A stretch of 5,496 nucleotides of DNA from a virus (IMGVR_UViG_2713897140_000005), one strand, 5' to 3'. Positions 1 to 5,496 are shown, counted from the stretch's first letter. Notes: generated from the letters alone by a model not told the origin. Translations and numbers: made by a program.

Positions 1-333
1 AATTGCCGTACTCAACGCTTCCTGCGCCGCCAGTAATGCACGGCGTTCCAGGGTATCGAAGATGCAGAGTCGGTGACGCAGCTCGCGCGGAAGAATTGCC
101 AGAACCGCAGGGATCAGTTTCTGAATTTTTTCCCTTTGCGCTTTCGTTTCACCTTTTAACCAACGATGATAGATGTTCTGCTGATTATTCCAGTCCTTGC
201 CTGGTGTCAGAGACAATTCACCTCCCCCCTGGCGCAGATATTCTTCAGTAATTGCGTTAGCGACCCACGCCTGCCCTTTTTCGGCTGCCAGGGCTAACAA
301 CACTGATTCGATGTGCTCATGCCTGATTTTCAT
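1..333 (-). CDS. ydaT: YdaT-like prophage protein (toxin YdaT family); N-terminal 111 codons, 3' end outside the window
   Basis: Found by reading the - strand; absent from the ORF track because it has no stop inside the window. ATG at 333-331, open to position 1, translation MKIRHEHIESVLLALAAEKGQAWVANAITEEYLRQGGGELSLTPGKDWNNQQNIYHRWLKGETKAQREKIQKLIPAVLAILPRELRHRLCIFDTLERRALLAAQEALSTAI. Recognised from memory as the YdaT family of Rac-type prophages. Its start overlaps the stop of the upstream HTH gene (ATGA). Not verifiable without a homology search. Confidence 0.6.
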   Translation of the reverse strand, partial: MKIRHEHIESVLLALAAEKGQAWVANAITEEYLRQGGGELSLTPGKDWNNQQNIYHRWLKGETKAQREKIQKLIPAVLAILPRELRHRLCIFDTLERRALLAAQEALSTAI

Positions 334-572: not shown

Positions 573-668
573 TGAAAACCTCCGATGACAATTTTAAACA
601 CACCTTGTGTTATATAGTCAAGCTGTTTTGTGTTTTATGTAAATCACGATTCGTGATACAAGGATGCA
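573..668. promoter_or_regulatory. Divergent promoter/operator region between the Cro-like (-) and repressor-like (+) genes
   Basis: 96-bp AT-rich spacer between divergent start codons. Palindrome AACAC-N5-GTGTT at 597-611; perfect 15-bp palindrome ATCACGA-T-TCGTGAT at 643-657; direct repeats TTGTGTT(A/T)TAT at 606-616 and 628-638. Candidate - strand promoter: -35 TTGACT (complement of 615-620) and -10 TTTAAA/TAAAAT (complement of about 592-598), with the 597-611 palindrome in its spacer. No convincing + strand -35/-10 pair could be placed. Confidence 0.5.
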
Positions 669-1142: not shown

Positions 1143-1184
1143 GTAGCATCATCATATGACACCCACCATAAAACACATTACGTG

Positions 1185-1213
1185 TTGACATAAGAAAACA
1201 AATTGTGTTTAAT
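1185..1213 (+). promoter_or_regulatory. Sigma70-like promoter (TTGACA-17-TTTAAT) overlapped by operator-like palindromes
   Basis: -35 TTGACA at 1185-1190, 17-bp spacer, -10 TTTAAT at 1208-1213. Imperfect palindromes AACAC-ATTAC-GTGTT (1172-1186) and AAACA-AATTG-TGTTT (1196-1210) overlap the -35 and -10 and resemble the 597-611 site. Confidence 0.4.
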
Positions 1214-1393
1214 AAGCATATCCAAACAACGCCCCACCAGAGAACGGCAGGACAATACCTCGAGTTATCCAGTCACTGAACAGGGCTAAGTAGCCAGCCT
1301 GAGGCATACGAACATGACGGCAGTTGTTGATTGATACAAAGCGCAGTAGATAAAACGTTCCGCCACCCGGCGTTAAGGGGAAATGGGGTCAAC

Positions 1394-2027: not shown

Positions 2028-2215
2028 TTCCTTACTGGTTGTGTGAGAACTTCAGTAAAGATACCACCAAAGCCCGGAGGTGGTGAAATAAAACCGGGCA
2101 CAACACGAAGGCGCATTTCCGGTATTCATAAAGAGTCGGTCTTGTCTGTGAAATTTAAATGGTGGGAGTGCGCTTCCGGTTGTAAATAACGACATTGCTG
2201 TGTGAAGTACCAGTT

Positions 2216-2256
2216 GGCGGCATCGGTTTAATTGCTGGCTGATGTCCGCCCTTTTT
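2216..2256 (+). terminator. Candidate intrinsic terminator (+ strand)
   Basis: GC-rich stem GGCGGCATC (2216-2224) / GATG-t-CCGCC (2241-2250) with one bulged T and a 16-nt loop, followed by CTTTTT (2251-2256). The T-run is on the + strand only. Confidence 0.4.
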
Positions 2257-2412: not shown

Positions 2413-2533
2413 CGGTGATGAAAGGAAAGAGAAAATGTTGAATGTAGCTATTGAAAACCAGAACGGGTGGAATTATAGTGCACCTGCACCTCATAAAACG
2501 GGTGCCGGGATTAGCACCCCGAAAGTTACTCGA

Positions 2534-2567
2534 GCGCATAACCGCGCTGAAGCGGTTTTTTTATGCG
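2534..2567 (+). terminator. Candidate intrinsic terminator / attenuator hairpin in the leader upstream of the Rha-family gene
   Basis: Inner stem ACCGC (2541-2545) / GCGGT (2552-2556) with loop GCTGAA, followed by 7 T (2556-2562). Outer complementary arms CGCATAA (2535-2541) / TTATGCG (2561-2567). Confidence 0.45.
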
Positions 2568-2591
2568 TAATGCACAGCCACATTCAAATTA

Positions 2592-2669
2592 TGGTGAGGC
2601 GTGCGGGGCAGCCGCAAGGCTGGCCGGGTTCTCGAGTGACCGGTAGTGCTAACCCTGTGCGTCTCACCA
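2592..2669 (+). other. Structured RNA element (long branched hairpin) in the 5' leader of the Rha-family gene
   Basis: 17-bp stem 2592-2608 / 2653-2669 with 14 Watson-Crick pairs plus 3 G-U pairs that exist only in the + strand RNA (they would be C-A on the - strand). It encloses a CAGCC-GCAA-GGCTG hairpin (2609-2622, GNRA loop) and a CCGG...CCGG hairpin (2624-2643). CTCACC (2663-2668) can alternatively pair with GGTGAG at 2693-2698. Confidence 0.4.
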
Positions 2670-2728
2670 CCCATGAGATTAGCACCTCTGCTGGTGAGTT
2701 AATTAACTTATCACTTGAGGATGTCATT

Positions 2729-3274
2729 ATGGCTACTACCCTTTCTCACCCTGACGTAACCATCGAAAATGGTCGCGCCGTCACTACTTCTATTTCGATT
2801 GCTGAGTTTTTTGGCAAGCAGCATCACCATGTTGTTCAAAAAATAGAATCCCTCGAATGTTCTGAACTATTTTTAACCAGCAACTTTTCGCGGGTTAAAT
2901 TCGAACACCGCGGCAATTCTTATAACGCCTACCAAATCACCAAAAACGGCTTCGTTTTCCTGGTGATGGGCTTCACGGGCAAAAAAGCCGCCACATTCAA
3001 GGAAGCCTACATTGCTGAGTTCGACCGCATGGAGGCCGAACTGCGCCAGAATAACACCCCACCTGCTGACAAGATGATTCCGGGTGATGGTCGCACTCTG
3101 GTTGTTCACTTCGACAAATTCGGCAATGTCGAATTCACCGAAACCGTTCCTGATGGCGCACTGGTCTGTACCCTGGAGACTTTCCGGTTTTATCTGGAAA
3201 AACAGGGCTGGACTCTTGTAAACCGGGGCGCAATTAAAAACATGACCGTAGAGCAGTTGCTTTCCTTAAAATAA
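2729..3274 (+). CDS. Rha-family phage regulatory protein, 181 aa
   Basis: MATTLSHPDVTIENGRAVTTSISIAEFFGKQHHHVVQKIESLE... matches the Rha (Phage_pRha) N-terminal signature, and ...GFVFLVMGFTGKKAATFKEAYIAEFDRME is typical of the family. GAGGA lies 7 nt upstream of the ATG at 2729. The ORF track extends the frame to an ATG at 2435 (279 aa, with an AAGGAAAGAG Shine-Dalgarno), but that extension covers the terminator and hairpin above and is unlike a folded domain, so 2729 is preferred. Confidence 0.7.
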   Translation: MATTLSHPDVTIENGRAVTTSISIAEFFGKQHHHVVQKIESLECSELFLTSNFSRVKFEHRGNSYNAYQITKNGFVFLVMGFTGKKAATFKEAYIAEFDRMEAELRQNNTPPADKMIPGDGRTLVVHFDKFGNVEFTETVPDGALVCTLETFRFYLEKQGWTLVNRGAIKNMTVEQLLSLK

Positions 3275-3284
3275 AAATGGAGCT

Positions 3285-3572
3285 ATGGATATGAACCCCA
3301 TGCTTGATTATTGTTTTACACCTGCCCTCAGGCAGACCATCAGTCATACCGGGATTAAAAAATGGCTGTGGAGAATCAGAAAAATTCTCCAGCAAAAAGG
3401 TGACCTGGATTTAATACAATGTGATTACCATCTCTGCAATAAACAGTTTTTACCTGAAAAAGCTTTTACTGGCGAGCTTATTTATATGCATGGAAACATG
3501 ATTGCCAGAAAGAAACGAAAATATTGCAGTGCAGCTTGTGCCGAAAAAGACAAGATGGCACACGAACTTTAA
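3285..3572 (+). CDS. Cys-rich small protein, putative zinc-binding (C-x4-C ... C-x3-C), 95 aa
   Basis: ORF track 3285..3572. Cys pairs in QCDYHLC and YCSAAC, and a basic KKRK patch. GGAG at 3279-3282 is better spaced for the in-frame ATG at 3291, which may be the true start. Positionally equivalent to the small zinc-binding gene (ydaE) upstream of racC-recE in Rac; no sequence identity claimed. Confidence 0.55.
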   Translation: MDMNPMLDYCFTPALRQTISHTGIKKWLWRIRKILQQKGDLDLIQCDYHLCNKQFLPEKAFTGELIYMHGNMIARKKRKYCSAACAEKDKMAHEL

Positions 3573-3966: not shown

Positions 3967-5376
3967 ATGAGCACCGATAAACAAGTTTACCCACTGTATT
4001 ACGAAGCAAAAAATGACAAAGTAAGAAAACGCCTCGGTATTAAAGGCGGTTTTTACTGGGCTGAAGCGAAAAAATTATCCATTGCCATCTCCCGTGGTGC
4101 TGTTGCGATTGACGATGCTGGCTACGATGAAGATGACTTTAAAAAACCTGTTCGCGTCAATTTGCCCGTTGTTGATGACCTCCCACCAGAAGGCGTGTTT
4201 GATACGGAATTCTGCAACCGTTACGAAAAAGGCGGGGAAGATGGCATCACAATGGTATTTATCGCATCTTCTCCCTCTGTTCAGGACAAACCAGCCAGCA
4301 CTGACAATACCAACGTCAACGGCGAAGACATGACAGAAATTGAGGAGAACATGCTCCTGCCAGTTTCCGGTCAGGAACTGCCCATTCGTTGGCTTGCGCA
4401 ACACGGCAGCGAAAAACCGGTAACGCACGTTTCACGCGACGAACTCCAGGCATTACACATTGCTCGGGATGAAGAACTACCGGCTGTTACTGCTCTGGCT
4501 GTTTCGCATAAAACCAGTCTGCTCGACCCGCTGGAGATTCGCGACCTCCACAAACTCGTGCGTGATACTGACAAAGTTTTCCCTAATCCTGGCAATTCAA
4601 ATCTGGGACTGATGACTGCTTTTTTCGAAGCATATCTGGATGCCAACTACACCGATCGCGGTCTGCTGACAAAAGAGTGGATGAAAGGAAATCGTGTTTC
4701 GCGTATCACTCGCACGGCTTCCGGTGCTAATGCTGGCGGCGGGAACCTCACCGATCGCGGCGAAGGTTTCGTCCACGATCTGACGTCGCTGGCGCGCGAC
4801 GTAGCCACTGGCGTACTGGCCCGTTCAATGGACGTGGATATTTATAATCTTCATCCGGCACACGCTAAACGCATTGAGGAAATTATCACTGAAAATAAAC
4901 CGCCCTTTTCTGTTTTCCGCGACAAATTCATCACCATGCCTGGCGGGATGGATTATTCCCGCGCCATCGTGGTTGCGTCAGTGAAAGAAGCACCGATTGG
5001 TATCGAGGTCATCCCCGCGCACGTCACTGAATATCTGAACAAGGTACTGACTGAAACCGATCATGCCAACCCTGATCCGGAAATCGTGGATATTGCCTGC
5101 GGTCGCTCCTCTGCCCCGATGCCGCAGCGTGTAACAGAAGAAGGAAAACAGGATGATGAAGAAAAACCGCAGCCATCTGGCGCAATGGCAGATGAACAGG
5201 CAACGGCTGAAACAATGGAACCGGATGCAACTGAACATCATCAGAACACGCAGCCGCTGGATGCTCAGTCACAGGTAAATTCTGTTGATGGGGGCGGGTC
5301 AGTACTGCGGGTTCCTTGCCAACCGTGTGTGTGGAGAGAAGCTGCCACAGGTGTACCGAGCTCTGGGGATGGATAA
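3967..5376 (+). CDS. recE: RecE (exodeoxyribonuclease VIII) N-terminal-region homologue, 469-aa ORF; apparently truncated or chimeric, C-terminal nuclease domain not encoded in this frame
   Basis: ORF track 3967..5376, with GAGG 9 nt upstream. Segments such as [50 protein letters not shown] and the acidic [15 protein letters not shown] tract match my recollection of the non-catalytic N-terminal part of Rac RecE (866 aa in K-12). No Walker motif. The last about 28 codons ([28 protein letters not shown]) look like out-of-frame junk. Identity is from memory and needs alignment. Confidence 0.55.
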
Positions 5377-5496
5377 ACCGGAACCAGTGGCGAAGGTGTG
5401 CTATGCACAAATGGTGACGCAGCTCCTGAGTCGTGACCCGTTCGAATGCGTGCTGTGTGGCGGCCGGATGGTATACCGCCGGGCCATCGCGGGACT
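5369..5496 (+). CDS. Cys-rich (zinc-ribbon-like) protein, N-terminal fragment; continues beyond the window
   Basis: Frame is open from 5279 to the window end, so it is not in the ORF track. ATG at 5369 overlaps the RecE-like stop (ATGGATAA); an earlier in-frame ATG at 5288 gives [70 protein letters not shown]-x2-C and further Cys suggest a zinc ribbon. Identity unknown (transposase-like or HNH-like are guesses). Confidence 0.4.

Follow-up and report, generated by a model that had tools for sequence, protein, structure and literature searches.

We have identified two 15-bp dyads downstream of the repressor gene of a lambdoid prophage of E. coli that, judged from sequence comparison, are very probably OL-type operators on a PL-type early-left promoter and are bound by the prophage's own 139-aa DicA-like repressor. 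The motif is AACAC-N5-GTGTT, and it recurs in the OR region on the other side of the repressor gene. We observed the sites themselves, their regular spacing, the selective conservation of their arms, their co-variation with the helix-turn-helix domain of the repressor, and the synteny of the locus with characterized prophages.

The window (the whole stretch of DNA analyzed, 5,496 nucleotides) matches a segment of the E. coli O121 chromosome NZ_CP119441.1 at 100% identity and lies there within a degraded lambdoid prophage integrated beside yebY/copD. This defective E. coli prophage is of the Rac/Qin-like kind, and the window represents its immunity region, with the features listed in Table 1. 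In order, the window contains ydaT, the cro-like gene, OR, the DicA-like repressor gene, a terminator, a promoter, a leader, a DUF1391 gene, Rha, ydaE and recE; gam, excisionase and integrase genes lie beyond it in the source genome. The order cro, OR, cI, terminator, OL/PL, early-left genes and int is that of lambda and is common to the K-12 cryptic prophages Qin and Rac. An equivalent hairpin and T run is present on the 3' side of the repressor gene in relatives. The 67-aa ORF that follows the DUF1391 gene has no family match in Pfam or NCBIfam, and its 3' end is overlapped by a YmfI-like gene that converges on the operon and is without RefSeq annotation in the source genome. The recE reading frame (3967-5496) stops at 5376, and insertions of IS600, IS421, IS911 and IS1 occur in the same prophage outside the window.

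Table 1. Features of the window, with positions counted from its first nucleotide
Feature	Position	Strand	Details
ydaT	1-333	-	Pfam YdaT_toxin; adjoins cro-like gene; RefSeq annotation
cro-like gene (YdaS position), 80-aa XRE helix-turn-helix	330-572	-	Pfam HTH_3, E 6.7e-10; RefSeq annotation
OR spacer, 96 bp, three sites	573-668	.	between the diverging 80-aa and 139-aa XRE genes
PR-like promoter of the cro-like gene	593-621	-	-35 TTGACT 621->616; -10 TTTAAA 598->593 (17-nt spacer) or TAAAAT (19-nt)
OR site a	597-611	.	AACAC-ACCTT-GTGTT (AACACACCTTGTGTT); exact match; in spacer of leftward PR-like promoter and into its -10
OR site b	620-634	.	AAGCT-GTTTT-GTGTT; good right half, weak left half
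OR site c	643-657	.	perfect palindrome ATCAC-GATTC-GTGAT; 2 mismatches; 12 nt upstream of repressor ATG
Repressor gene, 139 aa	669-1088	+	Pfam HTH_3, E 4.6e-13
Intrinsic terminator	1119-1144 (hairpin 1119-1137 and T run)	+	8-bp stem with 6 GC pairs; terminator scan
PL-like promoter region including operators	1172-1215	+	sequence and homology
OL site a	1172-1186	.	AACAC-ATTAC-GTGTT (AACACATTACGTGTT); exact match; overlaps first two bases of -35
PL-like promoter	1185-1215	+	-35 TTGACA 1185-1190; -10 TTTAAT 1208-1213 (17-nt spacer) or TAATAA 1210-1215 (19-nt)
OL site b	1195-1209	.	AAAAC-AAATT-GTGTT; 1 mismatch; fills promoter spacer and overlaps -10
Leader, 180 nt	about 1216-1393	+	between PL-like promoter and DUF1391 gene
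Type B leader element	1225-1328	+	outer helix 1225-1230 with 1323-1328
DUF1391 gene (YdfA/YdaF family), 51 aa	1394-1549	+	first in operon; Pfam DUF1391, E 5.8e-29; RefSeq
Second small ORF, 67 aa	1551-1754	+	ORF list; RefSeq partial hypothetical protein
YmfI-like gene, 98 aa	1731-2027	-	NCBIfam, E 2.4e-14, below cutoff
Weak DicF-like element	2201-2251	+	Rfam 28.6 bits against a cutoff of 48; E 0.0033
isrK and C4 RNAs	2486-2674	+	isrK 2486-2562, 68.5 bits; C4 antisense RNA 2587-2674, 78.6 bits
Rha-family gene	2729-3274	+	likely true start 2729
ydaE	3285-3572	+	feature table of window
recE pseudogene	3967 onwards	+	RefSeq: incomplete pseudogene

The centres of the sites fall at 604, 627 and 650 in OR and at 1179 and 1202 at the PL-like promoter, with every neighbouring pair 23 bp apart; the operators of lambda are 23-24 bp apart, centre to centre. 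The exact motif occurs at 597-611, where the dyad is as an earlier note on this DNA had quoted it, and at 1172-1186, where the last two bases of the dyad are the first two of TTGACA, in agreement with the overlap with the -35 element that the note had described. These two exact copies compare with 0.02 expected from 200 dinucleotide shuffles of the window, none of which (0 of 200) contained two or more. When up to one mismatch was allowed, OL site b was the only addition, both in the window and across 26 kb of the source chromosome; with two mismatches the excess was modest, at seven matches in the window versus 2.8 expected. A genome-wide count of the motif is a weak test, as a 10-base palindrome is expected about five times by chance in 5 Mb, and it is clustering and conservation, not the genome-wide count, that carry weight for these sites. 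No third OL site was recognized 23 bp to either side, where positions 1149-1163 and 1218-1232 are unlike the motif.

The second dyad of the promoter had been placed by the note at 1196-1210 (AAACAAATTGTGTTT). The dyad is present and does overlap TTTAAT, but its register was one base off, and it is corrected here to 1195-1209, which puts the dyad in line with the other sites, because AAAAC and GTGTT are fixed, with base 1200 being A, C or G, in six other E. coli alleles. Position 1200 would be an arm base in the former register, yet it is variable among alleles.

Either candidate -10 hexamer of the PL-like promoter (TTTAAT or TAATAA) overlaps or abuts OL site b. The promoter shares with its PR-like counterpart the layout TTGAC(A/T)-N4-(15-bp site)-TTTAA(A/T), in which the site begins 4 nt past the -35 element and enters the -10 element: the minus strand of OR reads TTGACT-ATAT-AACACAAGGTGTGTT-TAAAAT and the PL-like promoter reads TTGACA-TAAG-AAAACAAATTGTGTT-TAATAA. 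The arrangement of TTGAC(A/T), N4, operator and TTTAA is kept in relatives, and both TTGAC and GTGTTTAAT at the PL-like promoter are invariant in 8 of 8 alleles (alignment described below). A simple consensus promoter scan called neither the PL-like nor the PR-like promoter. The PL-like promoter was missed because position 2 of TTTAAT is not the conserved A, and it was retained despite the scan on the basis of homology and conservation; it is the positional homologue of dicBp of Qin, of PL933P, and of the mEp213 PL upstream of N.

In order to compare constraint across the sites, eight alleles were aligned: that of the window, six others from E. coli (93-98% identity), and one from a prophage of Salmonella with a repressor of 83% identity. 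With the five sites combined, variable columns numbered 2 of 50 in the arms and 12 of 25 in the central N5, compared with 82 of 215 in the rest of the intergenic sequence (Fisher p = 1.2e-5 for arms versus centres and 3.7e-7 for arms versus other intergenic columns), these statistics resting on few independent substitutions since the eight alleles are closely related. At OL site a, the arms are invariant in the eight alleles while the centre reads ATTAC, ACTTT, ATTTC or ATTTT. OL site b has a right arm fixed in all eight alleles, a left arm fixed in the seven E. coli alleles, and a highly variable centre; its left arm is imperfect and is weaker still in Salmonella (ATATC). In OR, the arms of site a are invariant with a varying centre, all 10 arm columns of site b are invariant, and site c has invariant arms around a centre of GATTC or GCATC, in each case over the eight alleles. 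Fixed arms with drifting centres form the pattern expected of a dimeric helix-turn-helix protein that would contact the outer bases.

Relatives of the repressor were gathered from other genera and from phages, and their OR and downstream promoter regions were compared. Sharing of 7-mers between OR and PL across loci was too noisy as a measure, many loci having the AACAC specificity in common, and it was replaced by 14-mer distances together with a tabulation of domain identity against operator type. In every relative examined, the dyad at the downstream promoter matches the prophage's own OR, and the type of dyad follows the N-terminal domain of the repressor. Citrobacter and related prophages, in which both the helix-turn-helix and the C-terminal domain are the same as in the window, carry AACAC-N5-GTGTT. 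The same helix-turn-helix is joined to a Qin-DicA-like C-terminal domain in Xenorhabdus and Photorhabdus and to an S24 peptidase in the cI of coliphage mEp213 (about 60% identical to the 139-aa repressor over the helix-turn-helix), and in these the operators are A(A/T)CAC-N5-GTG(A/T)T, with mEp213 having the motif at OR and also three times at PL, ahead of nutL and N. The ATCAC/GTGAT variant seen at OR site c also occurs in mEp213 and in the Xenorhabdus and Photorhabdus relatives, and the site equivalent to OL site a overlaps the -35 element in mEp213 and other relatives.

Two close variants with the same C-terminal domain and a slightly different helix-turn-helix carry GACAC-N5-GTGTC (L010) and CTCAC-N5-GTGAG (E. 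coli L092), altering the outer dyad bases only. Prophages L019, L020 and L024 combine the same C-terminal domain with unrelated helix-turn-helix domains and carry TAAACC..GCTTTA or TAAACA-N4-TGTTTA. Qin DicA, with a distant helix-turn-helix and the DicA C-terminal domain, is paired with TTAGT-N4-ACTAA; Rac RacR, not homologous at the N-terminus and different at the C-terminus, with TTAGGC-N4-GCCTAA; and a LexA-family repressor, with a different helix-turn-helix and an S24 peptidase, with GGTAAC-N4-GTTACC. The repressors are modular in both directions, as one N-terminal helix-turn-helix occurs with three C-terminal domains (DicA-like, Qin-like and S24) and, conversely, one C-terminal domain occurs with unrelated helix-turn-helix domains (among L014, L015, L019, L020, L024 and L083). 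These natural domain swaps provide a clean comparative argument that operator specificity lies in the N-terminal domain of the repressor. In about 300 E. coli genomes, the match to the window does not begin until about 1215-1223, which therefore marks an immunity-type joint just after the -10 element, with the operators travelling with the repressor gene.

The earlier note had attributed the sites to a RacR-like regulator, and this attribution did not hold. The 139-aa repressor has no homology to K-12 RacR (BLASTP E = 2.1) and is instead a distant DicA-type XRE protein, of which RacR is a positional analogue only. It consists of an N-terminal XRE helix-turn-helix and a DicA-like C-terminal helical domain, and no S24 peptidase (autocleavage) domain is present. 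The NCBIfam DicA subfamily NF007257 matches it over its full length (E 1.4e-15, 57 bits, cutoff 101), identity to K-12 DicA is 29% (E 2e-15), and the nearest solved domains include the DNA-binding domains of the 434, lambda and P22 repressors. The 80-aa cro-like protein is 45% identical to the repressor over 42 residues of the helix-turn-helix, and the recognition helix of each opens with Q-S-R; like Cro, the cro-like protein probably uses the repressor's sites too.

This kinship raises the possibility that the dyads serve mainly the cro-like protein and not the repressor, such that the promoter would be shut in lytic-type development and not in lysogeny. We consider this unlikely, even with the shared recognition-helix residues and the precedent of prophage CP-933P, in which PL933P is repressed to about the same extent by YdaS and by PaaR2. 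Lambda-type systems use the same operators for both proteins, so that binding by the cro-like protein would add to the main reading without replacing it. Across the domain swaps, a comparison made among the long repressors, the kind of operator goes with the N-terminal domain of these proteins. In Qin, dicBp lies between dicA and ydfA and has DicA operators; it is derepressed 22-fold without dicA, whereas deletion of dicC has no effect (PMC10448788).

It is far less probable that the resemblance between the sites is fortuitous or reflects shared promoter ancestry, with a duplicated A+T-rich promoter in which the 'operators' are protein-free spacer. The PL-like and PR-like promoters are indeed near-duplicates in layout, the sites are short and A+T-rich, and the excess of two-mismatch matches is modest, but exact matches are 100-fold over expectation, and 1172-1186, 620-634 and 643-657 lie outside promoter spacers. 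Kept arms with drifting centres are typical of sites for a dimeric DNA-binding protein and untypical of a promoter spacer, and the dyad changes in step with the repressor helix-turn-helix at both promoters of each prophage; this explanation is already disfavoured. Binding of the dyads by a RacR-type regulator or a host factor is scarcely credible, for although the repressor gene sits at the racR position in a Rac-like gene order, its product does not resemble RacR in sequence, the dyad found at OR and PL of Rac itself is of another kind (TTAGGC-N4-GCCTAA) and is absent from the window, and the motif follows the local repressor and not the host, being present in Salmonella, Citrobacter, Xenorhabdus and a coliphage.

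The reading of the two dyads as operators of the DicA-like repressor can be set against four known systems. With Qin, the window shares the order of cro-like gene, OR, short peptidase-less repressor, promoter and DUF1391 gene (ydfA), the placement of one operator upstream of or at the -35 element and one in the spacer into the -10 element, the DicA architecture of the repressor, and a weak DicF-like element downstream. Binding of DicA to the Oc operator has been demonstrated in vivo (PMC3441716). The operators of Qin, however, are TTAG(T/C)-N4-(A/G)CTAA and 35 bp apart, in contrast to AACAC-N5-GTGTT at 23 bp in the window, and no DicA-type operators (TTAGT-N4-ACTAA) were found in the window's OR or promoter region. 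The low identity of the window repressor to DicA and its score below the NCBIfam DicA cutoff are further differences, as are a longer leader of the Rac type and Rac-like downstream genes (ydaE and recE). The Qin operon contains ydfA, ydfB, ydfC, dicF and dicB, whereas the window has a ydfA-like DUF1391 gene and no dicB-like ORF was noticed there in the general survey of its ORFs.

CP-933P of E. coli O157:H7 (PaaR2-YdaS-YdaT) resembles the window in pairing a cro-like YdaS with YdaT, a CII analogue, and in its equally spaced palindromes, some of which have degenerate left halves. Its PL933P promoter has hexamers like those of PR and operators like those of OR, and PaaR2 and YdaS each repress it about 100-fold (PMC8630535). 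It differs in having PaaR2 as its repressor and GTTTAGTAA repeats in 18-bp palindromes as its operator consensus; the paaA2-parE2 toxin-antitoxin pair that follows its repressor is no part of the likeness.

Lambda and mEp213 share with the window multiple dyads at 23-24 bp centre spacing, positioned over the early-left -35 and -10 elements past the repressor gene and terminator, and mEp213 does so with the same motif family. Their repressors carry a RecA-sensitive S24 domain, unlike that of the window, and their PL is followed by nutL and gene N, where the window instead has a conserved structured leader. No N-like ORF was seen downstream of the PL-like promoter in the ORF list or by Pfam, the first gene being DUF1391.

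K-12 Rac has nearly the same leader and the order DUF1391, kilR or ydaE, and recE, and its racR-ydaG/ydaF promoter carries TTAGGC-N4-GCCTA dyads at the -35 element and in the spacer, although RacR is not homologous to the window repressor and the two operator sequences are unrelated. When RacR control is lost, expression of ydaG, ydaF, kilR, ydaE and racC rises 40-70-fold (PMC11014345).

We propose that during lysogeny, dimers of the 139-aa repressor would occupy the two 15-bp dyads of the PL-like promoter, with one helix-turn-helix on each 5-bp arm. Binding would probably be cooperative, given that the OL centres are 23 bp apart, as in lambda, and bound repressor would exclude RNA polymerase because the sites cover the -35 element, spacer and -10 element. 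The silenced operon would comprise the leader, DUF1391, the small ORFs, C4/isrK-Rha, ydaE and recE, and would extend towards xis and int, while the terminator at 1119-1144 would keep the repressor transcript out of it. The repressor would also occupy the three OR sites, repressing the promoter of the cro-like gene and ydaT and probably regulating its own gene. Upon loss or inactivation of the repressor, both promoters would fire. Since the repressor lacks an autocleavage domain, an antirepressor probably inactivates it; for DicA it has been argued that a repressor without S24 autocleavage needs an antirepressor or another route for induction (PMC10448788). After derepression, the cro-like protein, with its near-identical recognition helix, would probably take over the same sites. 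The note had further proposed that one prophage regulator governs both the switch region and this promoter and so links the downstream genes to the lysogenic state; conservation, co-variation and synteny favour this proposal, which matches what is established for dicBp of Qin and PL933P. Counting against the main reading, the -10 element is non-canonical and its promoter was missed by the consensus scan, the left arm of OL site b is imperfect, and two OL sites are recognizable in the window versus three in lambda and mEp213, and three are described for Qin and CP-933P. The immunity circuit may be partly decayed, since the prophage is defective, with IS interruptions and a recE pseudogene.

Further elements were noted within the PL-type operon. 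A module like the immI of P1/P7 spans 2473-3274, directly before and including the Rha-family gene, and has a weak c4 target-like sequence at 2473-2525; it may encode an antirepressor for a repressor without an autocleavage domain. The DicF-like sequence contains a terminator-like hairpin (2219-2246), is positioned as DicF is in Qin, and may be a diverged or decayed DicF. Just upstream of isrK/C4 lies a perfect 22-nt inverted repeat (2258-2279 and 2391-2412, arms 111 nt apart), which overlaps a sub-threshold STnc100 match (34.3 bits against a cutoff of 47).

A separate observation concerns the leader. Directly downstream of PL-type promoters, N-less Rac/Qin-like prophages carry a conserved structured RNA that occurs in two related forms. 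The window has type B, which is common to hetero-immune prophages, including Rac of K-12 (downstream of racR), and is present in more than 120 viral contigs of IMG/VR. Its outer helix covaries (AACAAC/GUUGUU, CAGCAAC/GUUGCUG, AACCC/GGGUU), and its inner hairpin shows compensatory changes around a conserved 15-nt loop. Type A, with which type B shares sequence blocks, is 64 nt long and, in many Enterobacterales prophages, is located 10-25 nt past such promoters; it too occurs in more than 120 viral contigs of IMG/VR, and examples are found at 3035-3100 of locus L003 and 3043-3120 of locus L024. Its sequence reads GUCAUC..GGCAGGACGCC..CACGAAGUAGCUG..CCGG-GGCAUACGAA-CCGG..GAUGAC. Its two main helices carry compensatory changes, with 91% of cells paired and nine double-change pairs, a level reached by 0 of 500 shuffles, and slid controls gave at most 46% of cells paired. 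A single consensus fold for both types was tried and abandoned, since RNAalifold on the mixed alignment gave -4.6 kcal/mol, which is almost nothing, and the types were therefore treated separately.

No Rfam family covers either type. Identity with the put of HK022 was considered and rejected: the HK022 PL-nun region (putL) has no blastn similarity to the leader, and a covariance model of type A found nothing in HK022, and likewise nothing in Qin, in mEp213 or in the window-type leader. The likeness to put is that of a structured RNA right after PL in an N-less lambdoid phage, an analogy of place only. By this analogy, it is conceivable, though on balance doubtful, that the leader represents a previously unrecognized type of antitermination or processivity element, cis-acting and factor-independent, that would resemble HK022 put in function while being unrelated to it in sequence. 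If true, transcripts from the PL-like promoter would continue past the internal terminators (DicF-like, isrK) and reach Rha, ydaE, recE, xis and int.

Of 5,426 complete E. coli genomes, about 150 carry a repressor of the type described here, O157:H7, O145, O55:H7 and O121 strains among them, and the type also occurs in Salmonella. The logic of OL/PL control is already established; particular to this case is which operator goes with which repressor, a pairing for which no description was found in the literature searched. The operator finding itself changes little, and it is the conserved leader RNA from which a new question could arise. The pairing assigns a concrete operator, A-A/T-C-A-C-N5-G-T-G-A/T-T, to a widespread, unstudied type of DicA-like repressor, and it defines the promoter that gates the early-left genes of the prophage. 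It can be used in annotating hetero-immunity groups and in predicting which genes of cryptic prophages switch on together.
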